In this document: in pieces, positions 3,524 to 28,793 of the stretch
How positions within the stretch are numbered: position 1 is the stretch's first letter
How the letters are laid out: every line of letters starts with the position of its first letter
Source of the DNA: an uncultured Anaerolineales bacterium
GTDB lineage: Bacteria; Chloroflexota; Anaerolineae; B4-G1
Length of the DNA: 64,000 bases
Direction: 5' to 3'
NCBI GenBank assembly: GCA_964421785.1
Contig: CAYQZG010000001.1
Span: 73,853 to 137,852 of the forward strand
Notes under the pieces: model-generated
Told to the model about the DNA's origin: nothing
Database searches by the model: none
What the model saw: only the letters and a program-made list of their open reading frames with translations
Made by a program: the position numbers and the translations under genes

Positions 3524-3560
3524 AGAGATGGCTAGATCGTGGATTGGGTGAAGTCGTATT

Positions 3561-4211
3561 ATGTCACTCGAGATACTTATCGCAGATGACCATGAAGTCG
3601 TGCGTCTTGGCCTACGCACGCTGGTTGATAATCATCCTGATTTCTCGGTCGTAGCTGAGGCTGCCACGGTCAAGGATGCTGTGCGCAAGGCACTGCTTCT
3701 TCATCCTGACGTCGTTGTGATGGACATTCGGCTGCTGGGAGGTAGCGGCATTGATGCCTGCGAGCAAATCGTGGAGCGAGTGCCGGATACGAAAGTCATT
3801 ATGCTCACCTCCTACGCGGAGGACGAGATGCTGTTCGATGCCATTGCTGCCGGAGCATGTGGCTATGTCCTCAAGCAGATTGGCAATGATGATTTGATAC
3901 GTGCTTTGGAGACGGTGGCGAGGGGTGAGGCGCTTCTCGATCCAGCATTGACTCAGCGCGTGTTTGATCGGGTGCGCGAGGCAGCTCGGAAGGAGCACGG
4001 AGAGGCTTTTGCTAATCTGACGGATCAGGAGATGCGTGTCTTGGCTCAGGTGGCGGAGGGGAAGACAAATCGTGAGATCGCTGGCGAGCTTTACTTGGGT
4101 GAAGGGACAGTGCGCAACTACGTGAGCAGCATTCTTAGCAAGCTCGACCTTTCGAACCGCACTGAGGCTGCAGCGTATGCTGTCAAACACGACCTGAATG
4201 GGTTCCTCTAG
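3561..4211 (+). CDS. two-component response regulator, NarL/FixJ (LuxR HTH) family
   Basis: REC domain (ADDH, D at ~54 'VVMDIRL', K box) + C-terminal LuxR HTH ([26 protein letters not shown]). Confidence 0.85.
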
Positions 4212-7165: not shown

Positions 7166-7209
7166 TTTGTACCTCCATGTCTACGACCAGACACAGAGGT
7201 TCAGGGACT

Positions 7210-7254
7210 GGGGGGTGACTCGTAGTCCAACCTCAAGACTACGTTTCACCCCCC
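7210..7254 (-). promoter_or_regulatory. long imperfect hairpin in rpsO-pnp intergenic region (rpsO attenuator/terminator and likely RNase III-type processing site for pnp leader)
   Basis: GGGGGGTGACTCGTAGTC ... GACTACGTTTCACCCCCC inverted repeat, about 16 bp paired with a small internal loop, seen directly. Position is analogous to the E. coli rpsO-pnp hairpin. Confidence 0.5.
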
Positions 7255-7367
7255 AATTCCTGGCCTTGCGTCCGGTCTCAGTTGTCATACATACCAAACG
7301 AGCAGATCACTGAACCACGTTCAGATCTACTCGCCTGACTCACGTGGACCTTCTATACTAGATTCAC

Positions 7368-7640
7368 CTATCTGCGCAATCCAAGTCGCTTGATGATTTC
7401 CTTATAGCGATCGGGGTCTTTGCGACTAAGGTAGTTCAAATGGCGCCGCCGCTGGCCTACCATCTTGATCAACCCTCGGCGGGAGTGTTCGTCGTGCTTG
7501 TGTTCCTTCAAATGCTCCGTCAACTGGCTGATGCGGGTGGTCAGCAACGCGACCTGTACTTCAGGGGAGCCTGTGTCATTCTCTGTACGACCGTACTCCT
7601 CAATGATTGTCTGTTTTTCGCTCTTGCTCAGCGACACCAT
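7368..7640 (-). CDS. rpsO: 30S ribosomal protein S15
   Basis: 90 aa, conserved S15 sequence ([31 protein letters not shown]). Confidence 0.95.
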
Positions 7641-7846
7641 GTCCTCCTTGGCTATCTCTATTCAAACGACATTGGGATTTTACCATATTCCGGCCTTCCG
7701 CGCAAGCTAGGCACCCGAGACTTTCCCGGTGGTAGTTTGTAGGGCTGGCTGAATCGCGGTAGAATGAGTTTTCTATCACGGCGGTCGATTGGCTCGGATT
7801 CTCACCTTAGTGGCCCGCGCTGTTGAGGCAAGGGAGGAGGTACGAT

Positions 7847-9600: not shown

Positions 9601-11697
9601 TCAGGGAACGGCGGTGTCCATCTCTTCTTGTTCTGAGGCCTCGCGGGCAACGAGTGCCCCTGTTGGGCAGACTTCAACGCACTTGAGGCAACCATCGCAA
9701 ACCGTCTCGCCTAGTGGCAGCCCCAGATAGGGTGTGACACGGGCGTCCAGGCCCCGACCAGAGAAGTTGAAGACGCGAAGCTCCTTCACGTCGCGGCATA
9801 CCTGGACGCATTGTCCACATAGGATGCATTTGCCCGGTTCTCGAGTCAGATCAGCGTGCGAGTCGTCCAGCGAGTAGTCACGCTTCTTGCCGTCGAAGCG
9901 GTCGGGATCGGCTCCGTACGCCATGCCGTATTCGCGAAGCAGGCAATCACCGACTGCTGAACAATCGCATTCCAGGCAGCGTTTGGCCTCTTCCACCGCC
10001 GCCGGCTCTGAGAAGCACAGTTCCACCTCTTTGAAGGTGCACACGCGCTCGTTCATCCCCAATTCAGGTTGTTCGTGGCGCTTGATCTTCTCTTCGCCAG
10101 CGAAGCGGGCCTCTGGTACTTCCTCCAGGGCTCCCATCGAGACGCTCCAAAGCTCTGGTAATCCGACGACATCCTCGCCGTTCAGGTACTGATTGATGCT
10201 GGCGGCTGCCCGGCGTCCGGCTGCCACGGCTTCCACGGCGATGTTGGCGCCGGTAACACTATCACCGCCGGAGAAGAGCCATGGTTCAGAGGTCTGCATT
10301 GTCTGCTCATCGACGGCGATGGTGTCCCAGCGCGTGAGCTCTACACTGCAGTCTCTCACGCAGTTCGGGTTCACTACCTGGCCAATCGCCATGACAGCCG
10401 TGTCGCATTCGAGCGTGAACTCGGATCCCTCGATGGGGATCGGGCGCCGCCGACCGCTCTCGTCGGGTGGGCCCAACTCCATTCGGATGCTGGTTACTCT
10501 GAGCTCTTCATCGGTCTCCTCGAAGCCGACTGGTGAGGCCAGGAAATGAAACTCGACACCTTCCTCTGCGGCGGCCTCGACCTCTACATCCAGTGCCGGC
10601 ATCTCCTCGCGGGAGCGGCGATAGAGGACAGTGACGTGCTCTGCACCCAGGCGGATGGCGGTGCGGGAGACGTCAATCGCTGTGTTGCCCCCACCGACGA
10701 CGATGACCCGATTGCCGATGGTCACCTTATGACCGCGCGTCAGGCTTTCCAGTAGCTCCACGCCGCCCCAGACTCGGGTACTGTCGATGCCGGGGATGTC
10801 TATCATACGCGAGCGCTGGGCGCCGATGGCCAGGAATACGGCGTCGTAGTCGTCTCTGAGATCCTCCAATCTGATATCCTTACCGAGCTTAGTACTGCAT
10901 CGCAACTCGATGTCCAGATCGGTGATGGTCTTGATCTCGGCATCCAGCATCTCGTAGGGCAGACGATAGGCCGGGATGCCGTAGCGGAGCATACCGCCTG
11001 GTTTCTCTTGCGCTTCGTAGATGGTCACGTGATGCCCCATCTGGCGCGCGTAGTAGGCCGCTGTGAGCCCGGCTGGCCCGGCGCCAACGACGGCGACCTT
11101 GTTACCTGTATCGGGCGCGACGTCGGGCAGATAAGGGTTTTCCTTCTCAAGATCTTGTTCCCCGGCAAATCGTTTGAGCACGCATATCGCCGTGGCGTCA
11201 TCGACGCGGTGACGCCGGCAGGCATCTTCGCATGGAGCAGGACAGATCGAGCCCAAGGCTACAGGGAAAGGAATAGTCTCTTTGATGATCCGAATGGCCT
11301 CATCGTAGTCTCTATCTCCAATGGCAGCGATGAAGCCCGGGATGTCGCAGCCGGCCGGGCAATTTAGCTGACAGGGGCCCAGACAATCGCCACAGTGCTC
11401 GGAAAGCAGCAGTTCCAGTGCGAGGCGCCGCGTGTGGCGGATTTGATCGCTGTTTGTGGTGACGACCATGCCATCTCGCACCTGTGTTCCGCACGACAGA
11501 ACCGGTTTGTCTATGCCTTCCACCTCCACCACACAGAGCAGACAGGAGTTGAAGGGCTCTAGGTCGGGATGATTGCACAGTGTCGGGATGTCAATGCCCG
11601 CCTGTCGTGCCGCTTCAAGAATCGTCCAATCCTTCGCAACGGACATGACCTGTCCGTCGATTGTTATTCGCGCTCTTTCGTTATCGTTCATCGTCAT
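9601..11697 (-). CDS. 2Fe-2S ferredoxin + GltD-like (NADPH-dependent glutamate synthase beta / pyridine-nucleotide-disulfide oxidoreductase) + C-terminal 4Fe-4S domains fusion protein; catalytic subunit of NuoEF-associated complex
   Basis: N-terminal NuoG-like 2Fe-2S cysteine pattern; GltD Fe-S region (CGDCLGPCQLNCPAGC); FAD/NAD(P) Rossmann motifs (VAVVGAGPAGL, VIVVGGGNTAID); C-terminal CxxCxxC ferredoxin motifs. Start trimmed to internal Met to remove overlap with upstream gene. Confidence 0.7.
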   Translation of the reverse strand: MTMNDNERARITIDGQVMSVAKDWTILEAARQAGIDIPTLCNHPDLEPFNSCLLCVVEVEGIDKPVLSCGTQVRDGMVVTTNSDQIRHTRRLALELLLSEHCGDCLGPCQLNCPAGCDIPGFIAAIGDRDYDEAIRIIKETIPFPVALGSICPAPCEDACRRHRVDDATAICVLKRFAGEQDLEKENPYLPDVAPDTGNKVAVVGAGPAGLTAAYYARQMGHHVTIYEAQEKPGGMLRYGIPAYRLPYEMLDAEIKTITDLDIELRCSTKLGKDIRLEDLRDDYDAVFLAIGAQRSRMIDIPGIDSTRVWGGVELLESLTRGHKVTIGNRVIVVGGGNTAIDVSRTAIRLGAEHVTVLYRRSREEMPALDVEVEAAAEEGVEFHFLASPVGFEETDEELRVTSIRMELGPPDESGRRRPIPIEGSEFTLECDTAVMAIGQVVNPNCVRDCSVELTRWDTIAVDEQTMQTSEPWLFSGGDSVTGANIAVEAVAAGRRAAASINQYLNGEDVVGLPELWSVSMGALEEVPEARFAGEEKIKRHEQPELGMNERVCTFKEVELCFSEPAAVEEAKRCLECDCSAVGDCLLREYGMAYGADPDRFDGKKRDYSLDDSHADLTREPGKCILCGQCVQVCRDVKELRVFNFSGRGLDARVTPYLGLPLGETVCDGCLKCVEVCPTGALVAREASEQEEMDTAVP

Positions 11698-16221: not shown

Positions 16222-19200
16222 TTGAGCGATTTGGGTCCTACTCTCATCCGATCCAAGCTGCAGGTGCCAGTTCCTTCCGGCCTTCTTCACCGGTCGCGGC
16301 TCTGTGATGCCATCGAACAAGGCCTTGAGCGCAAGTTGACGCTTATCTCTGCCCCAGCGGGTTACGGCAAGACGTCCGCCTTAGTTGATTTTGCTTGGCA
16401 CACCTCTGTCCCTGTCTGCTGGTACACGATTGATGAGCGAAATCGAGACCTGATTTCGTTCATCAGATATATCGTCGGTGCCATCCGCGAGCAGTTCCCA
16501 GGGTTTGGTGAACGGGTACATGAGGCCTTGGCCTCTCGAGGCAGCGAGCTCTTCCGTGATCCAACCATCGCCGTCGGCGATTTGGTCAACGAGATACTCG
16601 ATCTGGGTACAGAGTTCGTCTTGGTGCTGGACAACTTCGAGTCAGTGGAGGGAGCCTTTGGCATCCGTGAGTTTGTTCACCGATTGCTCGAAGTTCTTCC
16701 CTCCGCTTGTCACTTGATGATGGGCAGTCGTGTGCTGCCCGATGTGCCGATTACACAGCTTGTCGCCAAGCGTCAGCTTGTTGGTCTCACGGAGCAGGAT
16801 CTACGCTTCAAGCCAGAAGAGGTCGTTGAACTACTTCGAGACTCAAAGATTAGGATCTCCGAGAGACAGGCAGAGGCCGTTGCCAGGAATGCAGAGGGCT
16901 GGATCACCGGCATTCTGCTTATATCAGACTTGCTGCGCGAGGATATGGGAGCCATTATCAGTGACACTCGCAAAGCCACGTCTCAGACGTACAGATATCT
17001 GGCATCAGAAGTACTGAGTCGACAGCCTTGGGATCTCAGGCGCTTCTTGCACGCCTCTTCTATCCTGCGCGAGATGTCGGCACGGCTGTGTCGAGAGGTT
17101 CTTGGTATAGAAGGGGCCCACTTCCTTCTAGCCGAAGTCGAAAGGCGCAATCTCTTTGTGACTCGATTTGGCGATGACCGCAGGGCGGCCTATCGTTACC
17201 ATAATCTCTTCAGAGGTTTTCTGCAGGAACGGATGCGGCAGCGAGAACCGACTCGCTACGCCGAGCTTCATCAGCGGGCAGCTGCCTGGTTCGAACAGGA
17301 ACACCAAGTGGAAGAGGCGGTGCATCATTACCTTGCCGCTGAGGCCTACCCTCAGGCGACAACGCTGATGGAACGAGTGGCGTTGGAGTGGTTCACCCGA
17401 GGACGCGTTGAGACGTTGCTCCGCTGGGCAGAAGCGCTACCGGAGAAGATCAGAAGTCAGGCACCACGGCTCTTTCTCTATCATAGCAAAGTACTTACCG
17501 ATCGTTACGAGCATGAGCCGGCAAAGCAGGCCCTGGCCTACGCTGAGGCCGGCTTTGCTGATGAGGGGCTGTTGGCCTGTCTGGCGAGAGTGCACCTTCA
17601 GCATGCAACGTTGGACTTGTTTGGGGGTCGATACGAGGAGGTCATTGCGGAGGCAGAGAAAGCGCTTGAGATGCTGGGTCAGCAGGAGGTCGCGGAAAGA
17701 GCTCAAGCACAACGGCTGATCGGGAGGGCGCATCTCGGGCGCGGATGCTTCGATGCAGGGATCAGTGAACTGGAGGAAGCCCTCGGATCGTATCGGGAGA
17801 TTGGTGGTCTCTACAACGTGGTCAACTTGCTGCAGGACTTGGCCTTCGCTTTTGCCTCCCAGGGACGCTTTGAGAGGGCAGCCCGGTGCTTGAACGAGGC
17901 CTTGCCGATCGCCCGTCGGCTAGAATCGCCGGCCTTGCTGGCCGGAGTGTTGAATAGCTTGGGTTGGATCGACTATGCCTGCGGAAGGTATCGAGAAGCA
18001 CTTTCTCTGTATGAGGAGGGCCTTGCGGAGGCGCGCCGGGGGGGGGATCTCCGTGGACGGGCCAACATTCTGGACGGAATGGCAAGTATCTATCGAGATG
18101 TCGGCGCCTATCGAAGGGCGGAGTCTCTCTACAGCGCCGCTTGGCGGATCTCGCGTGAAAGCAGGCCCCGCCAAGCTGTTCTGATTCTGGTGGCGCGTGC
18201 CGATATGCATCGCTGGCAGGGACAGCATAGCCGAGCTCTTACCTTGCTGGAGGAGGCTAGGCGATTGGCTGAGGAGAAGGAGCTAGTGGTTGAACGCTGT
18301 GGACCATTGGCTATGGCGGAAGGCATAGCCCTGTCTGAAAGCGGCGAACTCGATGCAGGCCTTCGAAGGCTGTCTGAGGCCGTTAGCTTTCTGGAGCAGC
18401 AGAAAGCGAAGCGCAATCTGGCTCGAGGCTGCTTCTTGCTTGCCAAGGCGCGTCTGATGGCCGAAGAGAAGCGGCAAGCTGTCGCAGAGCTCCGCCGGGC
18501 AGTGGAGCTGGCCAGAGAGATTGGCACGGATCAATTCGCTGTCGTGGAGGCGCAGCATGCGGAGGGCCTGGTCGAGGTGGGCATTAGGGAAGGGGTGGAG
18601 GGCTGTAAGACCATCCTCGATGGCGTGCAGAAACTGGAAGCATTTAGAAAAGAGTTGATGTACGATATCGTGGGGCCGGATCGGGTGTCGGAAAGGCGAC
18701 TCAAGATCTACGCTCTTGGGCAATCTCGCGTCGTGGCTCATGGAGAGCCGATCCCTGATTCCGCCTGGCAGGCAGCGATGGCAAGAGAGCTATTCTTCTA
18801 CATTCTACTGCACGGCCCCGTAGAACGGGATACTGTTGGTCTTGTCTTCTGGCCCGATCTACCATCTGACAAGATGATAAACAACTTCCACAGCACGCTC
18901 TATCGTGCGCGTCATGCTGTTGGGAGTGATGGCATAGTGCTGGAGAATGACAAGTACAGCCTGGGCGTGGACTACTGGTTCGACGTCGAGGCATTCGAAT
19001 CCCTGGTTGAGCGCGCACGTCTCTTGCCGCCTCATGATTGGCAGGTTGAGGATCTGTGGCGGCAAGTGGTAGAGCTGTACCAGGGCGATCTGCTCCCCAA
19101 TGTGGACCGGCCGTGGTGTATATCGAGGCGCGAAGCGTTGCGGGCTGGGTATGTCGAGGCGCTGAGAGAGCTGGGGCGATGTCACGAGAGTCGAGGTGCG

Positions 19201-19425
19201 TTCCAGGGCGCCATTACCTGGTACCGCCAGGCACTGAAGGTGGACGAATTGCGTGAGGATCTCCATCGATCCGTGATGCGCGCGTATGCTCAGATCGGTC
19301 GTCGCTCCGACGCAGTAGCTCACTACCGTCAATGCCAGGAGACCTTGCGTCAAGAGTTGGGCGTCGAACCTTCTTGGGAGACGAGAAACCTATACGAAAA
19401 GCTCAGTGGCGGAGTAGCTGACTGA
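16222..19425 (+). CDS. STAND-type NTPase/TPR transcriptional regulator with C-terminal SARP-like winged-helix + BTAD domain
   Basis: Walker A (SAPAGYGKTS) at N-terminus, long helical/TPR middle, C-terminal OmpR-type wHTH (LKIYALGQSRV...LFFYILLHG...LVFWPD) followed by BTAD-like region (VDYWFDVEAFESLV..., ...GVEPSWETRNLYEKL). Confidence 0.7.
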   Translation: MSDLGPTLIRSKLQVPVPSGLLHRSRLCDAIEQGLERKLTLISAPAGYGKTSALVDFAWHTSVPVCWYTIDERNRDLISFIRYIVGAIREQFPGFGERVHEALASRGSELFRDPTIAVGDLVNEILDLGTEFVLVLDNFESVEGAFGIREFVHRLLEVLPSACHLMMGSRVLPDVPITQLVAKRQLVGLTEQDLRFKPEEVVELLRDSKIRISERQAEAVARNAEGWITGILLISDLLREDMGAIISDTRKATSQTYRYLASEVLSRQPWDLRRFLHASSILREMSARLCREVLGIEGAHFLLAEVERRNLFVTRFGDDRRAAYRYHNLFRGFLQERMRQREPTRYAELHQRAAAWFEQEHQVEEAVHHYLAAEAYPQATTLMERVALEWFTRGRVETLLRWAEALPEKIRSQAPRLFLYHSKVLTDRYEHEPAKQALAYAEAGFADEGLLACLARVHLQHATLDLFGGRYEEVIAEAEKALEMLGQQEVAERAQAQRLIGRAHLGRGCFDAGISELEEALGSYREIGGLYNVVNLLQDLAFAFASQGRFERAARCLNEALPIARRLESPALLAGVLNSLGWIDYACGRYREALSLYEEGLAEARRGGDLRGRANILDGMASIYRDVGAYRRAESLYSAAWRISRESRPRQAVLILVARADMHRWQGQHSRALTLLEEARRLAEEKELVVERCGPLAMAEGIALSESGELDAGLRRLSEAVSFLEQQKAKRNLARGCFLLAKARLMAEEKRQAVAELRRAVELAREIGTDQFAVVEAQHAEGLVEVGIREGVEGCKTILDGVQKLEAFRKELMYDIVGPDRVSERRLKIYALGQSRVVAHGEPIPDSAWQAAMARELFFYILLHGPVERDTVGLVFWPDLPSDKMINNFHSTLYRARHAVGSDGIVLENDKYSLGVDYWFDVEAFESLVERARLLPPHDWQVEDLWRQVVELYQGDLLPNVDRPWCISRREALRAGYVEALRELGRCHESRGAFQGAITWYRQALKVDELREDLHRSVMRAYAQIGRRSDAVAHYRQCQETLRQELGVEPSWETRNLYEKLSGGVAD

Positions 19426-19461
19426 GCCTTTGAGCTGCTCGTTCTCCAATCTCGAAACTCG

Positions 19462-19500
19462 ATAAGAGACTGCCTCCGCGGCAGTCTCTTATTCTTTTTT
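19462..19500 (+). terminator. strong rho-independent terminator after the STAND-SARP regulator gene
   Basis: 13-bp perfect stem ATAAGAGACTGCC/GGCAGTCTCTTAT with 5-nt loop followed by TTCTTTTTT. Confidence 0.7.
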
Positions 19501-19601
19501 GAGCTTCCTCCTGTTGCCACTTCGCTGTTTGTCACCTAGCTTCTCTCCGGAAAGAAGCATCCCACTGACGGATCCTTTCGCCATCTCCTTTATTCAACTC
19601 A

Positions 19602-19642
19602 GTTTCGTTTAGAGGTTTGTTTAGAGGCCTATGCTAGTATTG
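19602..19642 (+). promoter_or_regulatory. candidate activator-dependent promoter: tandem direct repeats GTTTAGAGG (12-nt period) about 7 nt upstream of a TAGTAT -10-like hexamer
   Basis: Repeats at 19607-19615 and 19619-19627; -10-like TAGTAT 19635-19640. Layout resembles SARP box promoters, where the direct repeats replace the -35. Confidence 0.4.
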
Positions 19643-19682
19643 TTGCGTATCCGGAGCAGAACAAGATTAGCGAGAAGGGGGG

Positions 19683-19871
19683 ATGACTATGAGGCAAAGA
19701 ATACTTCAGGTGTTAGCAGGTCTAGCCATGGTATCTGTGCTCTTCCTCGGTCCAGTCGGGCCTGAGCTTGCAGCACGGTCGTTGGGACAAAGGCTCTATG
19801 CAACTGACCCTGCTAGATCAGCTGGCCCGATGTCGCTATGCGGTATCGATGGCGGTGGTAGTGGGGCCTAA
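19683..19871 (+). CDS. small hypothetical protein with N-terminal hydrophobic (signal/TM-like) segment; coding status uncertain
   Basis: 62-aa ORF preceded by strong RBS GAAGGGGGG; hydrophobic N-terminus ILQVLAGLAMVSVLFLG; codon usage (GC3) atypical for this genome. Confidence 0.25.
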   Translation: MTMRQRILQVLAGLAMVSVLFLGPVGPELAARSLGQRLYATDPARSAGPMSLCGIDGGGSGA

Positions 19872-19882
19872 GGGGGAATGAC

Positions 19883-20110
19883 GTGCCACGAAAAGTTGAC
19901 GAACTGATGTGGCGTGCATTGACTGATGCTGCCTTCCGGGAAGGGCTCATGAACGGCCAACGACGGGAATTGGTCGATGCTATGGGGTTGACCGGAGCGG
20001 AGCGAGAGGCAGTGCTGACGGTGGAGGCCGAGTCGCTTGAGGACTTCGCCGGTGCGCTTTGTCAATCCTGTGCCAAGTCATCAATTATACAGGGGGGCAG
20101 TGTCATTTGA
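19883..20110 (+). CDS. small peptide with NHLP/Nif11-type leader-like domain (candidate RiPP-type precursor or small regulatory protein)
   Basis: 75 aa, GTG start 7 nt after AGGGGG RBS; motif ALTDAAFREGLMNGQRRELVDAMGLTGAEREAVL matches the NHLP leader consensus (AWxDxxFKxxLLxNPKxALxxxGVxLPxGVEI) position by position; Cys/Ser-containing C-terminus (CQSCAKSSIIQGGSVI). Confidence 0.4.
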   Translation: MPRKVDELMWRALTDAAFREGLMNGQRRELVDAMGLTGAEREAVLTVEAESLEDFAGALCQSCAKSSIIQGGSVI

Positions 20111-20142
20111 GCGTACATACGGGAAGCACTGTGTCCCATACA

Positions 20143-20382
20143 ATGCTTAGACAACTGGTTGGCCTGGCCTTGGTCGATAGAGCGTTCTGCGACGACTTGA
20201 TGAACGGTAAGCGGCTTGCACTCCTGGCCGAATTCGATCTTACCGACGAGGAACGAGAGATCGTGGCGTCCTTTGAGACGGGGTCGGTGCGGGAGCTTGC
20301 CATAACTGTACACAACTGGCTCAAGAAGCAGGACAGCCCGGCCTCTCCTCACGTAGACTGCAGCACGACTCAAGTTCTGTAG
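20143..20382 (+). CDS. second, paralogous NHLP/Nif11-leader-like small peptide
   Basis: Aligns with upstream peptide (ALVDRAFCDDLMNGKRLALLAEFDLTDEEREIV); alternative starts GTG 20131 / TTG 20059. Distinct C-terminus (HNWLKKQDSPASPHVDCSTTQVL). Confidence 0.4.
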   Translation: MLRQLVGLALVDRAFCDDLMNGKRLALLAEFDLTDEEREIVASFETGSVRELAITVHNWLKKQDSPASPHVDCSTTQVL

Positions 20383-20389
20383 GAATTCT

Positions 20390-20935
20390 GTGTCTGAGTC
20401 ACGTTATCTGTATGAGGGGAACGGACGGGCATATCTTGGCGAGGTGCCCTTATGTTTGGAGGGATTCCTAGTCGAGAGCTTGGCCTATGGCTTGCTGCAG
20501 GTTTTTGGTGTCAAGGGGCCACCTGTGCCTGTGCGAGATATGGTACGGGATCCTCACCCGGTCTTTGAGCGCTTGAGCCTGTTGGAGCTCAATATCGGTC
20601 TGTACGATGCCGTCTATCGATCGTTGGTCAATGGCTCGCGTCTGATCGCGGTCGATCTGGGCCATCCACTCGCCGTTCAGCGCTTTGCAATGGCCAGGGA
20701 GCTTTACGTGGCTTTCTGTTGTTCCCATCGCGCGGTTGAGTTGGATTGGCCTGATCGGGATCACCCACGAATGCACAGTAGTTTCTTCGCTCGTTGTCTG
20801 CTGATGCCAGCAGCGTGGGTGAAACACGTCGGTGCCAGGACTGGCTCTCTGGCAGAGCTGGCTGCTGTTTTCGGCGTTTCAACCAAGATGATGACCCTTA
20901 GGATGCAGGAAACAGACACAGAGCTTACAGCGTAG
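20390..20935 (+). CDS. ImmA/IrrE (DUF955)-like domain protein, apparently lacking the HEXXH catalytic motif
   Basis: C-terminal region SFFARCLLMPAAWV...LAELAAVFGVSTKMMTLRMQE resembles ImmA/IrrE family (ANxFAaeLLMP...fgVS); position of HEXXH occupied by 'AMARELY...CCSH'. Confidence 0.4.
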   Translation: MSESRYLYEGNGRAYLGEVPLCLEGFLVESLAYGLLQVFGVKGPPVPVRDMVRDPHPVFERLSLLELNIGLYDAVYRSLVNGSRLIAVDLGHPLAVQRFAMARELYVAFCCSHRAVELDWPDRDHPRMHSSFFARCLLMPAAWVKHVGARTGSLAELAAVFGVSTKMMTLRMQETDTELTA

Positions 20936-21070
20936 AGTCGATTCTGCCCATCTATCGAAACCATGAAGCGGGCGGCGGCCCCTGGCGGTCTGAGACAGAC
21001 TTAAGGGGAGCTGCGGCTCGCTTCTCTGTCGATAGCTTGAGGCCAAGGGTTTACGGGTCACCAGCGATTC

Positions 21071-21916
21071 GTGACCGATCATACTATGATAGATGGATTG
21101 GGCTTTTCGCGGGTGGGGCATCTAGCACTCGCCGGTGCTCTGATAGCCTGTGTTCTCATTGCGTGTTCCTCTCCCACTGATCCCACTTGGGATCGTGTGC
21201 GGGAGACAAGAACACTCCGCGTGGGCATGGACGCGAGTTTTCCACCCTTTGAGAGCATTGCTGCGGACGGCTCTCTGGTAGGGTTCGACGTGGATCTAGC
21301 CCGAGAGCTAAGTAGGCGTTTGGACGTGGAACCTCGCTTCGTAGCCAATCTGCCCTATGATGGCCTCTACGATGCGCTAACGGCCGGGCGCGTCGATATT
21401 GTGATCTCTGCATTGGTTGTCGATCCGTCCCGCATGGGCGACTACGCGTATTCGAGGATCTACTTCGATGCCGGTCAGGTTCTCGTGTCACGCACTGAAC
21501 AGAGAGCCAGCGACTCTATGGCGGATCTTGGTGGGCATCGTCTGGGTGTCGTTCTTGGGACAGAAGGGGATCGAGAGGGACGGCGGTGGGCACGGCGCTT
21601 GGAAGGCCTAGTTGTCGTGCAGTATCGAACGCCGGCTCGGGCTTTGAGTGCGCTCGAGGAGGGAGAGACAGATGTTGTTTTGGTCGATCACGTCTCAGCG
21701 CTGCAGGCGATGGGTGAGGGAAAGGATCTGGTCATCATTGGAAAGCCGGTGGTTGAGGTCCCCTATGCTTGTGCCATGCGACGCGACAGCGTGCAACTGC
21801 TCCGGGCAGTCAACGAGGCATTGGTGGCTATGGAGGACGATGGTACGATGGACGCGTTGATATCCAAGTGGCTCAGATGGACAGCCGGTACAGCCAATCT
21901 ACGGTTGGGAAGGTAG
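21071..21916 (+). CDS. ABC transporter substrate-binding lipoprotein, family 3 (amino-acid type), orphan (no adjacent permease/ATPase)
   Basis: Lipobox LIACSS; PBPb-like motifs (LRVGMDASFPPFE, GFDVDLARELSRRL, ...DIVISALVV). Confidence 0.7.
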   Translation: MTDHTMIDGLGFSRVGHLALAGALIACVLIACSSPTDPTWDRVRETRTLRVGMDASFPPFESIAADGSLVGFDVDLARELSRRLDVEPRFVANLPYDGLYDALTAGRVDIVISALVVDPSRMGDYAYSRIYFDAGQVLVSRTEQRASDSMADLGGHRLGVVLGTEGDREGRRWARRLEGLVVVQYRTPARALSALEEGETDVVLVDHVSALQAMGEGKDLVIIGKPVVEVPYACAMRRDSVQLLRAVNEALVAMEDDGTMDALISKWLRWTAGTANLRLGR

Positions 21917-21941: not shown

Positions 21942-24900
21942 TTAGGGGAGTGTGATGTTGCTCGGCAGGAGCAGGCGATTGTCTGATAGCGGTGCACCCT
22001 CGCTGTCTACGGCTTGGAGTCGCTGCTTTGTGTCGGGATCGTACCAGCCGACGGCGAGGTCGTAGCTCCCGGGCGCCACGTCCTTCGTTGGGAGGTCGAC
22101 TTCGTCTGAGACCACCTCACCCGCGGTCCATTGACCGGTTGGATAGCTGAATCCTCGAGGCATCGTATCCACTTGGGAAGCAGGTTCACCGGTCTCTGGA
22201 TCGGCCAGGTGAACGAAGAACATGTAGTGGCGGTCCGGTGTTTTAAGCGCCTGCCAATAGAGTGTCAGATGGAGGCTCTCCCTACCCTGTGTCAGATCAT
22301 ATCCTGCCAGCTCGATCATATCGCCGAAACGGGCTTCCACGTTTCTGTCCATCTCAGGCAACTTCCAAACGCGCTCTCGTTCTCGGATCCTCACGGAAGC
22401 GGGGTGGGTATAGGAGCCGATTGATGCTCCACCTTTCGGTTCTCTGAGCGTGAGAGAGAGCGTGTAGTCGCCCGGTGGGGACGTTGGAGGGATTGTCAGG
22501 GATGCGCGCCCAGCGACCCAGGCATCGGCTGGCCATTTCTTCGGGGAGGATCCAGGAGCCATTGGTTGTGTGCTGGAGATGCTTCGTTCAGATCCCTCCA
22601 ATTGCCATTCGACCATATAGTCCTGCGAGGGTTTCTTCACGGTCGACCAGTGGGCGGTTGCCTCCAGTTTTTCTCCCTGCCAGACACTTGGTGGTATCTC
22701 GACCCGGTTGAGCACAAGCTCCTCCCCGAACCGAGCCGCAGGGGGCACGTCAGGTCGTCCTGCGGTCCGTGTCAGGCTAATGGGGGTTGCGTACTGCCCG
22801 ATGCTTTCCCAAGTTGCTACGCGGTAAAGGTCGATGGTGAGCGTGTAGGTGTCGCCGGGCGGTACTCCGGGCAGCACGGCCGGGATGTGACGATCCTCGA
22901 TGACGTTATGGAGGGGCCAGAGACTGGTGGGCAGAAAGCCATAACCTGGTTGGGTATCGTAGCCCGGCCGGTCGCCTTGATGCAACCACTCGTTATTTGC
23001 GGCATCGGTCAGGCTCAGGCTGAGGCCGTAGTTGGCGGCGATGGGTTTCACGGCGGACCAGTCGAGTTGGACGTGGAGTCGATCAGGGGCAGGTTGTGTG
23101 GTTTGGACGTCGTGCAAGCGCACGGTGCCATTGGCAAACGTGGCGCGCACAGGCTCTTCTGCGCATGTCCGATCGCGCTTTATCCATATTGGCCGTAAGT
23201 AGACCGGGGACGTGTCGTTGATCTGGAGCAGGTAGATACCCGGTGCTGTTCCCTGCGGAACCGAGAGGGTTATGGTGGTGCTGCCCCTGACGCCAGGGTC
23301 AGACTGCTGCCGATTGAGAGCGATCGGTGCCTCTGCTGTGGCTGGTACCTCGTCTCTTCGTATTGCCGCTGGCGAGAGCAGACGTAACTCTGCAGGAGAT
23401 ATCGCGGAGACGACTGCTGGGTTGTCTTTGTCCCTCCTCCAGTTGAGAGTCACTGCGAAGTCTTTCCCCGGGGTGATTCCTTCGTCAGGGGGAGATTCAA
23501 GGCTTCCGTAGCTGTAGCCGGTCAGTCGCCACCCTTCGAAGGGCACACCGTCTGGATTGTGATGGAGATATGGCTTCTCCTCAAAATCCATTGTCAGATC
23601 GTGGCTAGAGGTGGAGGTAACGCGAGGGTGAAAAGCCGTCACCAGTGACAAGATCACGACGAAGGGCAGATAAGGAGCTGTAGCGTGTCGATTACAGGTT
23701 GCCAATCCCGATATTTCACGTCCATTCTGTCTTCTTTTTCCCTCTTCTTCTTGGTTCCATGGCTCAACACAGAGGACAAGGATCATCAGCATGGCGATAA
23801 GGGATGCGATTTCGGCTCCGAGGCGTAGCGGTGTGCGGCCTAAGCGAATCTTGACTATGTGTGATCCTGGAGGAATGTACAGACTGAGGTAACCTGAGCC
23901 AATGGCCGGCTCTACCTCCATGCGCTTTCCATCCACGACGGCTTGCCAGCCGGGCCAGTAGTAGAGGGGGAAAGCGACCTTCGAGCCCTCGCTTCCTGTC
24001 TCCACGTGCCAGATCCGGCGTGTTGGTTTGCGATCGAGCCTCTTTGCACCGAGGAGCGTTCCATTGATGGGCATGGCACGGGGCCGGGCATCGGGCGAGA
24101 CTTGCTCTGGTCCGATGTAGGGGCGAGGTTTTACCCACTTGGGCAGATACTCATGCCGGATGGTTGAGCCGATATTGCCGGTGAAAAGCTCATACAAATG
24201 CAGTCGCTCAGGGTTTACGTCGTCGGCGCTGATGGGCAGGTAGTCAGGCTGGAGGCCGACCAGCACTGCTGTCGTCAGCAGGATCCCCAACGCAAGAGCG
24301 CAAGCCCAGGCAAGATAGCGGTGTTGGAATCTGATATGGGAGACGGCAGCGCCGGTCAGCAGCGCGGTGAAGAGGGCTTGAATGGAGAGGAAACGCCACG
24401 GGAATTGGGCCATTGACAGCAGGGGAAGGTGGTCCCAAACCGACTGCGAAAGAGGCGTAATCAACCAGGTGCTGAGAAGGAGGCCCAGAAGACTGAAGCC
24501 CAGCTTCATTATGTCCGGATGGTGTGCCTGGAGCTGAGAGTCGAGCTCTTTGGGCTTACCGTGCCGGGTGACGAGTTGTGAGCTAATCCCTCTGAACGAT
24601 ACAATGAGGGCGCCAGCCACTGCCAGTATGGCCTGCAGCAATCCCATTGCGAAGGGGGAAGTGGCACTTTGTCCTGTGGCGTAATCGAACAGGACCTTCC
24701 ACTGCACGAGATCAGTTCCCCGGAAGTGATTGCCATAGAAGAAGTAACCGGTGGTTTGAGCACTGAGTTGGACGTACTTGGTCTCCGCCAGGGCCGGCAG
24801 CCAGAACCAGGCTGAGAGCAGCAGGGCTAGCAACAAGGGGGATGTGAGGAGTGAGCAACGGGCGATGGCCCTCCCGAACGGGTAATCTGGCCCTGAGCTC

Positions 24901-25568
24901 GTCGTACGCGTGATGTGAAGCGTCACATAAAGGAGGATGAAGGGCGAAAAGATGAGGGCGGAGACGTTGTGGGTGACGATGAGGCCAGCGTAAGCCAGGG
25001 CTGGGAATAGGGCCCTCCGTGCAGATGGCTGCAAAGCGAGCCGATCGAATCCCCAGAGGATGAGGGGATAGAAGGCGAAAGCCGCGAATTCAGAGAGGGA
25101 GTCTCCGCGTACGTAGATGTTGATGAGGTGGAACGGGGCTGATATGTAGGCCACAGCGGCAAGCCAGGCTCCAGGACGGCTGCGGAGGACCTTTTTGGTC
25201 CAGTGGTACATCGCTAGGGCCGATACTGCCAGGAAGAGGGTCTGCGTCAGTTTGATTGCCGTGAGGATATCCAGGCCGAGGACCGCAAAGCCTGCAGCGA
25301 GGTAGTATGGCAGGGCTGCGTAATAGCTGAAGAAGGGGTAGCCAAACCCATAGGCTGCATCGGGCATCCATCGAACCGGAAATACACCGGCGCGCAGATT
25401 GGCTGCAAGCTGATGCGTGCGAAGCAACAGGAAAGGGCTATCACCGCCTCCGCGCGTGTTCAGCAGGCCAGCGCCCCATACTGGACCTGCCGCAAGCAGT
25501 GACAAAAGCAGGAGCGTCGCCGGGGGAATGATCCGTTCCCAGGCGACGCTCCGTGAAGCGGTCTTCAT
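21942..25568 (-). CDS. large (1208 aa) polytopic membrane protein with big extracytoplasmic C-terminal domain; putative GT-C-type glycosyltransferase/YfhO-like
   Basis: About 14 predicted TM helices in N-terminal 600 aa by hydrophobicity, then long soluble region; family assignment tentative. Confidence 0.45.
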   Translation of the reverse strand: MKTASRSVAWERIIPPATLLLLSLLAAGPVWGAGLLNTRGGGDSPFLLLRTHQLAANLRAGVFPVRWMPDAAYGFGYPFFSYYAALPYYLAAGFAVLGLDILTAIKLTQTLFLAVSALAMYHWTKKVLRSRPGAWLAAVAYISAPFHLINIYVRGDSLSEFAAFAFYPLILWGFDRLALQPSARRALFPALAYAGLIVTHNVSALIFSPFILLYVTLHITRTTSSGPDYPFGRAIARCSLLTSPLLLALLLSAWFWLPALAETKYVQLSAQTTGYFFYGNHFRGTDLVQWKVLFDYATGQSATSPFAMGLLQAILAVAGALIVSFRGISSQLVTRHGKPKELDSQLQAHHPDIMKLGFSLLGLLLSTWLITPLSQSVWDHLPLLSMAQFPWRFLSIQALFTALLTGAAVSHIRFQHRYLAWACALALGILLTTAVLVGLQPDYLPISADDVNPERLHLYELFTGNIGSTIRHEYLPKWVKPRPYIGPEQVSPDARPRAMPINGTLLGAKRLDRKPTRRIWHVETGSEGSKVAFPLYYWPGWQAVVDGKRMEVEPAIGSGYLSLYIPPGSHIVKIRLGRTPLRLGAEIASLIAMLMILVLCVEPWNQEEEGKRRQNGREISGLATCNRHATAPYLPFVVILSLVTAFHPRVTSTSSHDLTMDFEEKPYLHHNPDGVPFEGWRLTGYSYGSLESPPDEGITPGKDFAVTLNWRRDKDNPAVVSAISPAELRLLSPAAIRRDEVPATAEAPIALNRQQSDPGVRGSTTITLSVPQGTAPGIYLLQINDTSPVYLRPIWIKRDRTCAEEPVRATFANGTVRLHDVQTTQPAPDRLHVQLDWSAVKPIAANYGLSLSLTDAANNEWLHQGDRPGYDTQPGYGFLPTSLWPLHNVIEDRHIPAVLPGVPPGDTYTLTIDLYRVATWESIGQYATPISLTRTAGRPDVPPAARFGEELVLNRVEIPPSVWQGEKLEATAHWSTVKKPSQDYMVEWQLEGSERSISSTQPMAPGSSPKKWPADAWVAGRASLTIPPTSPPGDYTLSLTLREPKGGASIGSYTHPASVRIRERERVWKLPEMDRNVEARFGDMIELAGYDLTQGRESLHLTLYWQALKTPDRHYMFFVHLADPETGEPASQVDTMPRGFSYPTGQWTAGEVVSDEVDLPTKDVAPGSYDLAVGWYDPDTKQRLQAVDSEGAPLSDNRLLLPSNITLP

Positions 25569-25614: not shown

Positions 25615-27189
25615 CTAATAGCGGCGGCGTCGGGTCAAAAAGAAGAGCACAGCGATAGCTCCAGCCAAGATCAGGACGAGAACGCCCGCTACTCTCGCCA
25701 CGTTGGTCAGGACGTTGCCCAACCAGCCATTGCCATTGGTGTCAGCTACGCTCTCATCGCCCGATGAGGTCGCACCGCTGGTCTCCTGGTTTGCTTCTTC
25801 TGAGCTTGCCGCCGCTGTGGTTCGCGTGTTGCCGAACTGGAGGTCGAAGCTTGTACCTTCTGCCAGGGCGACGTTTTGTTCGGGCAAGCCGGTCGGCTGA
25901 TAGCCGGCGGGAGCTTGTTGAATCACTCGATAGGAGCCAGGAGCCAATCCGGTGAAGCAGTAGGGCTCATTGACCCCGTCTGATGTGTACTCTGCCACGA
26001 CACCGGCGGTGGTGGCGAGGGTGAAGTCGACGTTGGGCAGTAGTTCTTCGTTATCGGGATCTCGCACTGTGTCGCCATTCCGGTCGTGAAAGGCGAGCAC
26101 GCAGACCGAAGCTCCCTCCTGCGCCGGGGTAGGTGATGGCACGGTCTCTCCCTCAGATTGCGGTGTGGCTGTCGGGGGTTGGGGAAGCGGTGTTGCGGTT
26201 GGTGCCTCGCTCGGGACTGAGATGACCAGTTCTTGTCCCACGCGGATCAGATTGTTAGGGCCAATCGAGCCGGCGTTAAGCTGCTGGAGCATGTCCACCG
26301 ACATATCATACTGGTAAGCAATGCTGCTTAGTGTCTCTCCGCTCTGAACAACATGGACAATCGATCCATCTGGGCGCGGGGTTGGGGTGGGAAGGGGCGT
26401 GGGTGAGGGGCCCGGTGTCGCCGTGGGCGGAGGTGGCAATGGCGTAGGGGTGGGTGTCTGCGCCATGCCGAGCGGCTCCAACCTCAGGGCATCCATGAAG
26501 ATGCCGTTGTTATCAAGTCCCCACTTTGAGGCATACTCAACAAAGACGGTCATGTCCGCAGCCGTAGCGACGAAATTGAACTGTAGTGTGGTGCGACCGA
26601 GGTAGAACGGCGAAGTGTTCGTGGGGTCTGCCCAGTTGCTGAAGTTGATAGCGCCCTCATCCTGCCAGTTGGCGCCGACCGGTCCCGCGCCAAGACGAAC
26701 TTGAGCTGAAAAGGGATCGCTCGGGGCAACCTTCTGCCCGTCCCACTCGAACGTATCTACAAACACCGGCACCACAAAGCGATACTCCCGGCCAACTTCC
26801 AGGCCACTCACGTCTTGGGATATTCCCACGTGTATGGGAGCCTTAGCCCAGAACATCTTCAGGGTGTAGTCGCCATCCCAGAAGAAGATATCGTGCTCAT
26901 CCGGGGGAACCTGGGTCCTCGGCAAGACGCGGCTTTCCGGGCGGACAGTGACGTTATTGGCGTCGCCCATAGATTCGCCTTCTGTCCAGTGCATCTCCCA
27001 TTCATTGGGTGCTTGCTGCGTGCCACTTACATCGTACCAACCTTGCTCAAAGCCACCGTTCCTGAGAAGGTTCTGTTGCTCTTGGGCCTGGGTCCCCTGC
27101 GGAAACGCGGCAAGCACCACTGTCGCGACCATGTTCAAGACCAGGATACCCCTCAGAATGGGGCACATGCTGTTCTTAGCCACCTTCAT
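25615..27189 (-). CDS. secreted LysM domain protein with PT-rich linker, CnaB/SdrD-B-like domain and C-terminal TM anchor
   Basis: Signal peptide after internal Met (MKVAKNS...AFPQGTQAQ); LysM (VHVVQSGETLSSIAYQYDMSVDMLQQLN); SdrD-B-like segment (HDRNGDTVRDPDNEELLPNVDFTL...GSYRV); terminal hydrophobic helix + RRRRY. Confidence 0.6.
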   Translation of the reverse strand: MKVAKNSMCPILRGILVLNMVATVVLAAFPQGTQAQEQQNLLRNGGFEQGWYDVSGTQQAPNEWEMHWTEGESMGDANNVTVRPESRVLPRTQVPPDEHDIFFWDGDYTLKMFWAKAPIHVGISQDVSGLEVGREYRFVVPVFVDTFEWDGQKVAPSDPFSAQVRLGAGPVGANWQDEGAINFSNWADPTNTSPFYLGRTTLQFNFVATAADMTVFVEYASKWGLDNNGIFMDALRLEPLGMAQTPTPTPLPPPPTATPGPSPTPLPTPTPRPDGSIVHVVQSGETLSSIAYQYDMSVDMLQQLNAGSIGPNNLIRVGQELVISVPSEAPTATPLPQPPTATPQSEGETVPSPTPAQEGASVCVLAFHDRNGDTVRDPDNEELLPNVDFTLATTAGVVAEYTSDGVNEPYCFTGLAPGSYRVIQQAPAGYQPTGLPEQNVALAEGTSFDLQFGNTRTTAAASSEEANQETSGATSSGDESVADTNGNGWLGNVLTNVARVAGVLVLILAGAIAVLFFLTRRRRY

Positions 27190-27356
27190 CCTCCCTCGAT
27201 CAATACACCTTTCTGGGAAATCCACGAATGGTTGTTCTGACACTCTACGCGGGCTATGGCGCATCAGAGATGACACCTGCTGCCTAGCTCCAACGCTCCA
27301 GCTTGTTCCAGCTGGGGAATGATTTTAGCACATTTGACCAAAAGCACAAAGCGGGT

Positions 27357-28793
27357 CTATGATCGGCCGGTTAACCATCTGCCTGCACCCTGTGCTAGGA
27401 GCACAAGTCCCTCTAAGAGCCAGAGTAGTGGGAGATTTCCCACGTTGCGGAAGATCTGACCGAGGAGATAGGACCAATTTCCTGGCTTGGCGATCATTGG
27501 ATTGAGCTGGGCAAGATCCAGATCGTAGTTGTACGATAGACCAATGTGCAGGAAGATGTTGCGTACGGACAGGAAAAGCACCCCGTATAGGATCAAGTAG
27601 GCGACGGCCAGCCATGCCGGACGTTCGCTCCAACCTTGGATCTCTTCGATGCAGAATGCGAGAGGAATGCACCAGAGGGCCAGGAAAGGCGCCAGATAGC
27701 GCCCATCAGCGGTGAACCCATGGAACGTGCGATGCTTGGCGAACAGCATCAGGTAGACCAGGAAGAGCCCCAGCGTCAGGGTGGCTTCGCGCCTTGCGCG
27801 ACGGACATACGACCCCATCCCGAGAACCGATAGGAGGAGCACCGGCGAGAGGAGGAAGAGCCCTTGGTTGTAGCAGGTGGGATCGCACCATCCACCTCCT
27901 TCTCCCCAGACGAGCATGGCCCGCAGGCCTTTACCCAAAGGAAAATTGAACGTCTCTAAGAACTTCCCAGCCCAAGGGTAGTTGATCGCGTAGTCGTAGG
28001 ACAAAGCGAAAGGGGAACCGAAATTGCTCGTGTTGTAGAAGGCCAAGAACGCGGCCGGGAGAAGGCCCCCGCCGATGAAGAGGGCTAGGTATGCAAACCT
28101 GCTTGTGGACGGGGACGATGAAACCGTGAGCAACAGATAGAGCCCAACAGCAGCCACCAGGATGACGTTGGAGTACTCGACGAGTACGGCGCAGCCGACG
28201 AGACCCCCTAATGCCAGTGGCACTATCCGATGGAGGTTGGACGCACGGCCTGCGCGGATGGCCAGGTAGACTGACCCCATCACCAGCAGCGCCGAAGGAG
28301 CGTGTGAAAACAGCACGCTGCTGTACTTCCAGTGTATCGTGCCCAGGCCGAGGGTCAAGCTGGTCGTCAGGGCACTGAAGACGGATAAGTTTGACTCGCG
28401 AAGCAGAACGTAGAGGAGCAAAACAACACCTGTTCCAGCCCATATGGGAACCAGCATCACGTAGAGCAGACGCGGATTATGGGGATCGTGGCGCGAATCC
28501 AGTGGCGATAGCGGGGGGGGCAACACGTTGCCGATCTTGTAGAACGCGCTGGCGATCAGGGCCGTGCCCGGGGGCCGATCGCTGAATAGCTTTCCCTCTC
28601 GACGGGCGATATCGTTGCCCTCAGCATACTGATCGTAGCTCTCGATGGTGAATTGTCCTTCCTCCGCCAGAGCACGCGTTAAGGCATAATGGCTTCCATC
28701 GTTGCTGCACGTGATCCCCACCACAGTGGCGAAGTAGATCGACGAGACGACGAGGAAGAGTGTTGTGCAAAGAATTCGATCAGTCTGCGTCAT
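27357..28793 (-). CDS. polytopic membrane protein, putative GT-C fold glycosyltransferase
   Basis: 478 aa, about 12 TM helices, short loops; overlaps next gene start by 14 nt (operon). Confidence 0.45.
   Translation of the reverse strand: MTQTDRILCTTLFLVVSSIYFATVVGITCSNDGSHYALTRALAEEGQFTIESYDQYAEGNDIARREGKLFSDRPPGTALIASAFYKIGNVLPPPLSPLDSRHDPHNPRLLYVMLVPIWAGTGVVLLLYVLLRESNLSVFSALTTSLTLGLGTIHWKYSSVLFSHAPSALLVMGSVYLAIRAGRASNLHRIVPLALGGLVGCAVLVEYSNVILVAAVGLYLLLTVSSSPSTSRFAYLALFIGGGLLPAAFLAFYNTSNFGSPFALSYDYAINYPWAGKFLETFNFPLGKGLRAMLVWGEGGGWCDPTCYNQGLFLLSPVLLLSVLGMGSYVRRARREATLTLGLFLVYLMLFAKHRTFHGFTADGRYLAPFLALWCIPLAFCIEEIQGWSERPAWLAVAYLILYGVLFLSVRNIFLHIGLSYNYDLDLAQLNPMIAKPGNWSYLLGQIFRNVGNLPLLWLLEGLVLLAQGAGRWLTGRS

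Follow-up and report, generated by a model that had tools for sequence, protein, structure and literature searches.

What is encoded by three tandem small open reading frames (ORFs), two of which resemble the leader peptides of RiPPs (peptides that are made by ribosomes and modified after translation), at a locus with no maturation enzyme nearby? The question is raised by a 64,000-nucleotide stretch of DNA from an uncultured Anaerolineales bacterium (GCA_964421785.1, contig CAYQZG010000001.1, positions 73,853 to 137,852), referred to here as the window, in which the three ORFs, termed ORF1, pepA and pepB, lie between positions 19683 and 20382. An earlier sequence-only reading had likened pepA and pepB to nitrile-hydratase leader peptides (NHLP) and Nif11 leaders, and had listed small regulatory proteins of NHLP fold as one of its options. 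That option fits the evidence best. Judged from arrangement and conservation, ORF1, pepA and pepB are the first three genes of a predicted four-gene operon that ends with an M78-like gene, and the operon forms a conserved unit with the upstream regulator gene REG. The cassette looks like an uncharacterised regulatory module and not like an antibiotic-peptide gene cluster. We tentatively propose, with a confidence slightly short of even, that it is a SARP-driven small-protein signalling module similar to AfsR/AfsS, in which pepA and pepB would act through protein-protein interaction and ORF1 would be exported. The features of the locus are the following:

REG, 16222–19425, plus strand: 1067 amino acids (aa); MalT-type STAND/NOD ATPase, MalT-like tetratricopeptide (TPR) repeats and a C-terminal SARP module (OmpR-type winged helix plus BTAD).
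Intrinsic terminator 3' of REG, 19461–19503, plus strand: 14-bp stem and T-run, found by a terminator scan.
Predicted SARP-box promoter, 19604–19640, plus strand: two direct repeats, 8 bp, extended −10.
ORF1, 19689–19871 (from the first ATG, 19683), plus strand: putative exported or membrane mini-protein, 60 aa (62 aa from 19683).
pepA, 19883–20110, plus strand: acidic, 75 aa; LigA-like/NHLP-clan helical domain (residues 1–59), Cys60 and a 15-aa tail.
pepB, 20131–20382, plus strand: pepA paralogue, 83 aa (79 aa from ATG 20143); His replaces Cys60; 22-aa tail.
M78-like gene, 20390–20935, plus strand: 181 aa; M78 (ImmA/IrrE) fold without the HEXXH zinc-binding motif.

The four small genes are tightly packed on the plus strand, with REG upstream. 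The three ORFs are found where the sequence-only reading had placed them, with the starts of ORF1 and pepB revised. The G-run ribosome-binding site (RBS) of ORF1 (19677–19682) abuts the first ATG at 19683 and the orthologues start with MRKRLVQ, so the true start is probably the ATG at 19689. For pepB, initiation at GTG 20131 appears more likely than at ATG 20143: it gives the N-terminus MSHTMLRQLVG found in orthologues and lies four nucleotides downstream of an RBS, GGGAAG (20121–20126). The GTG start of pepA, at which the orthologues have ATG, is preceded by the RBS AGGGGG six nucleotides upstream; an out-of-frame ATG lies between the two (19878–19880). The two peptides are paralogous, as had been proposed, with 42% identity over 50 aa (E = 2e-9).

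All three ORFs are real, conserved and under purifying selection. A profile search retrieved 428 relatives, nearly all from Anaerolineae metagenome-assembled genomes (MAGs) and metagenomes, and an exhaustive profile search gave 461 clusters at 50% identity. In the clade of the window, dN/dS is 0.11 for pepA, 0.23 for pepB, 0.12 for the M78-like gene and 0.43 for ORF1, values that are rough as dS is saturated (>1). That the region is untranslated and the ORFs are chance reading frames had to be considered mainly for ORF1, which has no Rfam or Pfam family match, a low codon-adaptation score and a G+C content at third codon positions of 0.46, compared with 0.59–0.75 in neighbouring genes; the atypical codon usage noticed earlier is thus borne out. 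This possibility is negligible and is refuted by conservation: each of the three ORFs has orthologues in dozens of species, where RBSs are present, the reading frame is preserved and dN/dS stays below 1. No RNA family was found by an Rfam scan of 19300–21100.

How far does the conserved unit extend? Four context look-ups supplied related loci, and 31 more loci, each in a Chloroflexota MAG, came from scanning species-representative genomes; all were annotated with local hidden Markov models (HMMs). Across this set the gene order is REG, ORF1, pepA (sometimes in two copies), pepB and the M78-like gene. The ORFs and their order are kept in more than 30 MAGs of Anaerolineae, Thermoflexales and other Chloroflexota, the nearest relative of the source genome being an uncultured Anaerolineales MAG (L001/L008; L numbers denote loci), and the family is confined to Chloroflexota MAGs wherever an assignment is possible. 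In nearly all loci with enough upstream DNA, a REG orthologue lies directly 5' of the small genes. Housekeeping genes, not the same ones from locus to locus, flank the cassette; those of the window include PNPase, MurJ, a NuoF-like protein, an aminotransferase, a solute-binding protein and glycosyltransferases. The earlier reading is supported in part; it overlooked that the conserved unit also takes in REG and the M78-like gene, and that ORF1 is a conserved partner. No description of the cassette was found in the searchable literature, including searches for Franean1_4349, for Anaerolineae with NHLP, and for M78 with RiPP and SARP.

The identity of REG gives the first indication of what the unit does. 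Its N-terminal part matches the NCBIfam model of E. coli MalT (E = 7e-75, residues 8–519), and its C-terminal part matches the SARP region of AfsR (E = 4.5e-21, residues 824–1060) as well as Pfam BTAD (E = 3.4e-25, residues 920–1061). MalT-type TPR repeats lie between the NOD and SARP parts, with Pfam matches to TPR_MalT and TPR_12. REG thus contains all the domains of an AfsR-like 'large' SARP activator, namely the OmpR-type DNA-binding domain with BTAD, the NOD and the TPR repeats, in an order unlike that of AfsR.

A promoter of the corresponding type is predicted in front of ORF1. SARP activators bind repeats spaced by one helical turn (about 11 bp), the 3' repeat being 8 bp away from the −10 element, and AfsR activates the adjacent small-protein gene afsS (PMC10936776). 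Positions 19604–19640 of the window read TTCGTTTAGAGG TTTGTTTAGAGG CCTATGC TAGTAT, with no −35 element. The repeat cores, GTTTAGAG, are at 19607–19614 and 19619–19626; the 3' repeat ends 8 bp before the −10 element TAGTAT (19635–19640), which is preceded by TGC and so forms an extended −10. The layout between 19607 and 19640 is that of a SARP-type promoter, and the site occurs once in the 64-kb window. The repeat period is 12 nucleotides in the window and 11–12 elsewhere. Using one strict regular expression, we found the identical 37-nucleotide geometry in 17 loci (the window and 16 related ones), and variants with small changes are visible in the remaining loci. A distant clade of the family has another repeat sequence, TTTCGTGAGTG, in an unchanged layout, as a DNA-binding domain co-evolving with its site would produce. 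A GC hairpin followed by Ts also lies 3' of REG in most of the other loci for which the sequence was printed, and the succession of terminator, repeats and extended −10 is kept in every clade that was looked at. From the domains of REG, the terminator, the layout of repeats and −10, their conservation and the AfsR-afsS precedent, we infer that REG activates the ORF1-pepA-pepB-M78-like operon.

Several loci depart from the common arrangement upstream of ORF1. In L017, the interval between REG and ORF1 (7116–7806) holds about five tandem copies of a 137–139-nucleotide unit, each with a promoter-box-like sequence, two hairpins and the RBS-like GAAAGGAGG; the array looks like an amplified promoter and 5' untranslated region of the ORF1 operon. 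L020 and L034 have long intergenic regions with additional copies of the box. In L004, no REG homologue precedes ORF1 and an unrelated 924-aa protein is encoded upstream instead (6274–9048), and the repeat box is still present (about 9643–9685).

One of the closest known systems is AfsR-AfsS of Streptomyces. Both regulators combine SARP, STAND/NOD and TPR parts, both have a small-protein gene immediately downstream, and neither promoter has a −35 element; in each, the two direct repeats are spaced by about one helical turn, with 8 bp between the 3' one and the −10. The two systems differ in domain order (NOD-TPR-SARP in REG, SARP-NOD-TPR in AfsR), in the 11–12-bp repeat period and extended −10 of the cassette, in the target, which here is a predicted four-gene operon with products unrelated to AfsS, and in phylum (Chloroflexota versus Actinomycetota).

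The nature of pepA and pepB is less obvious. The sequence-only reading had described a position-by-position match to the NHLP consensus, which our searches do not bear out: neither protein matches TIGR03793 (NHLP) or TIGR03798/PF07862 (Nif11) in NCBIfam and Pfam scans at E ≤ 10. They do match NF038399, the 'Os1348 family NHLP clan protein' (pepA, E = 2.6e-6, 27.4 bits; pepB, E = 1.6e-5, 24.9 bits). The E-values are significant and the scores are below the 40-bit cut-off (relatives score 28–39.9 bits), so the two proteins are homologues and not members of this family. pepA also has weak matches to the nitrile-hydratase-alpha model TIGR01323 (E = 0.011) and to Pfam Frankia_peptide, PF14407 (E = 0.0076, 17 bits, compared with a gathering threshold of 48 bits); the Pfam scan gave no PF14407 match for pepB, and many relatives bear precomputed matches to it. 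Of the proposed kinship, homology to the NHLP/nitrile-hydratase-alpha clan stands, and membership in a leader family does not. Os1348 (NF038399, from Pseudomonas sp. Os17) and Frankia_peptide are the closest sequence families overall (E = 1e-5 to 1e-10), and like pepA and pepB they are small all-helical NHLP-clan proteins of 65–85 aa.

The predicted fold agrees with this placement. An AlphaFold model of pepA, built from a 70-sequence alignment, has a confidence (pLDDT) of 83, with five helices between residues 3 and 66 and a disordered end. The three-helix core can be superimposed on structures of the LigA domain, and the model agrees in fold with a borosin precursor (9cgw_B). A Foldseek search of the PDB with the model gave nothing significant, and the Os1348 crystal structure was not among the matches; sequence searches of the PDB with pepA, pepB and the M78-like protein returned chance matches only. 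In ECOD, one X-group unites LigA, nitrile hydratase alpha, Nif11, ComX and Frankia_peptide. pepA, pepB and their relatives form an acidic group whose median net charge is −3 to −4.

Is pepA a peptide precursor after all? If so, it would give rise to a modified pheromone or bacteriocin of the ComX, AIP or RiPP kind, with the enzymes encoded elsewhere; the LigA-like domain would be the leader, FAGA a double-glycine-type cleavage site and the Cys tail the core, and pepB and the M78-like protein would be leader-binding helpers or decoys. Several observations speak for such a precursor and weigh against our proposal of a regulatory module. pepA has a highly conserved 59-aa domain followed by clade-specific tails, as in a leader and core. 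The junction, FAGA|LC, is double-glycine-like, with hydrophobic residues at −4, −7 and −12; the GG of pepA noticed earlier does lie 3 residues from the C-terminus. The Cys that follows FAGA is nearly invariant (112 of 120 relatives, Tyr in the other 8). In the clade of the window the tails contain many Cys and Ser residues (CQSCSDSC...), and L002, L019 and L022 have two pepA copies with unlike tails. The nearest families, PF14407 and NF038399, carry RiPP-related annotation, ECOD places Frankia_peptide with Nif11 and ComX, and the fold resembles a borosin precursor. For Os1348 itself, a post-translational modification is assumed (PMC7726476). Also to be weighed against our proposal, the saturation of dS blurs the estimates of selection, and each step of the mechanism that we propose, the interactions, the export of ORF1 and the action of REG on the repeats, is drawn from gene architecture.

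Other observations make the precursor interpretation unlikely. Consistent with the earlier reading, no YcaO, LanM, radical-SAM or C39-ABC gene is found among the large ORFs of the window from 17 to 49083. Nor is a maturase, ATP-grasp enzyme, C39/PCAT exporter or protease found in the related loci of more than 30 species, as judged by precomputed Pfam annotation and ORF listings. The only enzyme-like gene, the M78-like gene, lacks the catalytic motif. pepA tails are mostly 7 or 15 residues long and some have only 1–4 (..ALCA, ..ALCQS, ..ALCQI), leaving would-be cores of just 3–4 residues. The tail was expected to be a hypervariable core; it is short and, in the clade of the window, under purifying selection (dN/dS of 0.23, subject to the same saturation). 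The position of the conserved Cys is occupied by Tyr in 8 relatives and by Tyr, His or Asp in pepB-type paralogues, and the residue therefore looks like a part of helix 5. Each locus has a single cassette, with no scattered family of precursors, and both proteins are acidic.

The evidence from pepB points the same way. The sequence-only reading had taken both C-termini to be cores. Most pepB orthologues stop at the helical domain (..LYEWLxx) and lack a FAGA-like cleavage motif; the 22-aa tail is confined to the clade of the window and is conserved, not hypervariable, where it exists. pepB also occurs inside larger proteins, as an N-terminal fusion domain. Compared with the NHLP and Nif11 leaders of TOMMs, lanthipeptides and proteusins and with split borosin precursors, the cassette proteins share the ancestry or fold of the N-terminal helical domain, and pepA shares the conserved domain, variable tail and GA junction. 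They differ in having no match to the leader models, no maturase or PCAT gene in over 30 loci, a pepB without a core, and pepA tails that are very short and conserved within clades.

The duplicated pepA genes deserve a separate description. The second copy lies between pepA and pepB in L002 (10394–10534), L019 (3783–4465) and L022 (2156–2705), and paired tails read, for example, CQPGF and CQPGSAGA or CQPAFCVA and CQPGFARP. The ORF called for the second copy of L002 is just 46 aa long, perhaps because of a truncation or an unusual start.

Os1348 provides a useful comparison. It forms a folded dimer whose C-terminus is flexible, and a metallopeptidase-like gene is close by, its neighbours encoding a GNAT protein, an HEXXH protein and a SagB-type dehydrogenase (PMC7726476). 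The cassette, unlike the Os1348 locus, has no GNAT or SagB gene, its M78-like partner lacks HEXXH and its context is regulatory. Similarly, the ATP-grasp enzymes tied to Frankia_peptide are absent from it.

The fourth gene of the operon encodes a protein that clears the Pfam threshold for M78 (PF06114) and has the M78 fold. The site of the HEXXH motif reads ARELYVAF in all 82 relatives in which it could be located, and no HEXXH was found elsewhere in the relatives apart from one chance HEQSH. As the zinc-binding motif is missing, the protein is presumed to be a pseudo-peptidase and not an active metallopeptidase. Its invariant polar residues are Arg, Tyr and Cys. A profile search against CapP gave a partial match that spans ..DLFARCLLMP, and the CapP Glu just before this segment aligns to Arg in the family consensus. 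One of the top structural neighbours, PrpR of M. tuberculosis, was entered in the database as a transcriptional regulator of HTH type. The M78-like protein is therefore unlike the ImmA, IrrE and CapP metallopeptidases in two respects at the active site: HEXXH is replaced by an invariant ARELYV, and the CapP Glu before ..DLFA..LLMP is not conserved. It also differs in its company, the partner being LigA-like and not an XRE repressor.

Natural fusions connect the M78-like protein to pepB and to signalling domains. In P0187 pepB is fused N-terminally to the M78-like protein, and P0311, in a cluster of seven that includes NCBI MBU0702635.1, consists of pepB, the M78-like protein and a third domain that we call 'DEPW'. 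In L004 the M78-like protein is fused to a receiver domain. The 'DEPW' domain, about 70 aa long (..LFSLDEPWRGRFLxLVA...PTxEEVxxWL...), matches nothing in Pfam or NCBIfam. In the 68-aa-type clade it stands alone or is fused to the M78-like protein, and it is not found in the clade of the window; examples are L006 (11218–11469), L024 (8271–8645) and the C-terminus of the protein at L002 (10872–11624). Where pepB and the M78-like gene are missing, a 'DEPW' gene directly follows pepA.

A small five-helix protein encoded just before an M78-fold gene mirrors the known XRE-M78 pairs, and one may ask whether pepA and pepB are DNA-binding factors that replace the XRE repressor of an ImmR/ImmA-type pair. 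This is very improbable: both proteins are acidic, with a net charge of about −4, and an M78-like protein without HEXXH cannot cleave. XRE-like DNA binding by pepA and pepB was rejected on the grounds of fold and charge. A defence island was also considered. The sole PADLOC match was a weak capP for the M78-like protein, and the idea was rejected on account of the output domain of REG, a SARP DNA-binding module, and of the housekeeping genes on either side.

ORF1 has the layout of a secreted or membrane-anchored mini-protein: a K/R-containing n-region, a hydrophobic stretch of about 20 aa, an AxA-like site (ELAA|RS), then a middle part that varies and a C-terminus reading ..CGIDGGGSGA. The signal-peptide-like N-terminus noticed earlier is shared by the orthologues recovered in 23 loci, where a GGAGG RBS precedes the gene. 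The orthologues also have AxA-like sites (for example APGAFA|RE) followed by 20–35 clade-specific residues and a Gly-rich C-terminus, mostly GGGS(S)G, and the frame is maintained at lengths between 43 and 66 aa. From the conserved signal-like N-terminus, the hydrophobic stretch and the Gly-rich end, ORF1 is therefore predicted to be a real exported or membrane-inserted mini-protein.

The position of ORF1, right after a TPR regulator and first in the operon which that regulator would induce, suggests another interpretation: a Sec-exported, glycine-tailed signal that the TPR repeats of REG would sense, either directly once it is re-imported or by an indirect route, as happens with the Phr, PapR or AimP propeptides, whose genes adjoin those of RRNPP receptors; the other genes would only tune autoinduction. 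The signal-peptide features, the conserved C-terminus and the clade-specific mature region agree with it. In the RRNPP systems (Rap/Phr, PlcR/PapR, AimR/AimP), likewise, a TPR regulator adjoins a short gene with a Sec signal peptide and a conserved C-terminus. The signals of RRNPP systems are cut from the C-terminus of the propeptide. We regard a sensed ORF1 peptide as unlikely, about as much so as the precursor interpretation. REG is a STAND ATPase with SARP output and not an RRNPP receptor, the phylum is another one, no oligopeptide permease is linked to the cassette, and the likeness lies in the gene arrangement and the signal-peptide-like sequence. ORF1 is also the least constrained of the four genes (dN/dS of 0.43) and is truncated in L031. 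In the distant clade, ORF1 consists of a transmembrane segment and a GAPxGxGGSGGG tail (..ALAGGAPDAVSGGG); because almost no residues follow the hydrophobic segment, ORF1 may be simply a tiny membrane protein, perhaps one that pairs with DUF5317.

The distant clade was recovered by a metagenome scan with a distant pepB-like group, and it shows which parts of the cassette are constant. A REG homologue lies upstream wherever the DNA was sufficient, followed by an ORF1-like gene, DUF5317, sometimes a receiver, a LigA-like protein and then a signalling gene. This last gene encodes a sensor-less HisKA/HATPase kinase, an HD-GYP protein or a receiver; L036 encodes a PAS-GAF-HD protein. The constant triad is thus REG, ORF1 and a LigA-like small protein, and the varying partners are signalling proteins. 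By clade, the accessory partners are the M78-like protein, 'DEPW', DUF5317, a receiver, a histidine kinase or HD-GYP. Because the partners vary among proteins of signalling type, the composition of the cassettes points to signal transduction as their output. The polytopic membrane protein DUF5317 (PF17248) always follows the ORF1-like mini-gene in this clade, as in L040 (6392–6964), L051 (6379–6939) and 14 more metagenome loci, which suggests that DUF5317 and the glycine-tailed mini-proteins are functionally paired.

Based on these observations, we suggest how the regulatory module might work. Some cue would switch on the NOD/TPR part of REG, which would then bind the repeats and fire the operon, as AfsR does at afsS. 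ORF1 would leave the cell through Sec and yield a 20–30-aa peptide with a Gly-rich C-terminus, or stay behind as a tiny membrane protein. pepA and pepB would be folded, acidic, cytoplasmic LigA-like proteins that act by protein contacts and not as cleaved precursors. pepB would dock on the catalytically dead M78-like protein, with which it forms one polypeptide in some genomes, and the invariant Arg, Tyr and Cys of the latter may take the place of the zinc site. pepA, which always stands beside REG and ORF1, would be the likeliest candidate for feedback on REG or for passing the signal onward.

The surroundings of the cassette contain further genes of possible interest. In L002, L004, L006, L018 and L024, a Bac_transf priming sugar transferase and a GT4 glycosyltransferase lie downstream of the cassette on the minus strand, in convergent orientation, and such neighbours are seen in many 68-aa-type loci. 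Downstream of the cassette in the window are genes related to cell-envelope glycosylation: PTPS_related (21942–25568), LysM (25615–27276) and PMT_2 (28780–30825). These genes may reflect plain synteny or may be a clue to the regulated process. The pair encoded at 2102–4211, a histidine kinase (HisKA_3) with a response regulator of LuxR type, is apparently unrelated to the cassette.

A more far-reaching version of the module can be envisaged, in which a STAND-SARP receptor autoinduces an operon that carries its own exported, glycine-tailed signal, ORF1, and the LigA-like proteins work inside the cell as co-activators or anti-activators that the M78 pseudo-peptidase restrains. We consider such a Chloroflexota-wide peptide signalling system a long shot. 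If it existed, RiPP-leader and ImmA/IrrE folds would have been repurposed as non-catalytic signalling parts, and the system might possibly coordinate cells within Anaerolineae filaments.

The cassette also bears on how such genes are annotated. Genome-mining tools by default assign small NHLP-clan or LigA-like proteins to RiPP precursors. A fixed regulatory cassette without a maturase, in which pepB occurs fused to its partner, suggests that the leader fold also serves as a module for protein interaction; a leader-like domain alone is therefore insufficient for labelling a bacteriocin or RiPP cluster. The M78-like protein would be a new conserved case of the M78 protease fold without its metal site. 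With a STAND-SARP regulator, a repeat box and small-protein outputs, the cassette is a regulatory unit amenable to testing, in a phylum where hardly any signalling systems have been characterised.

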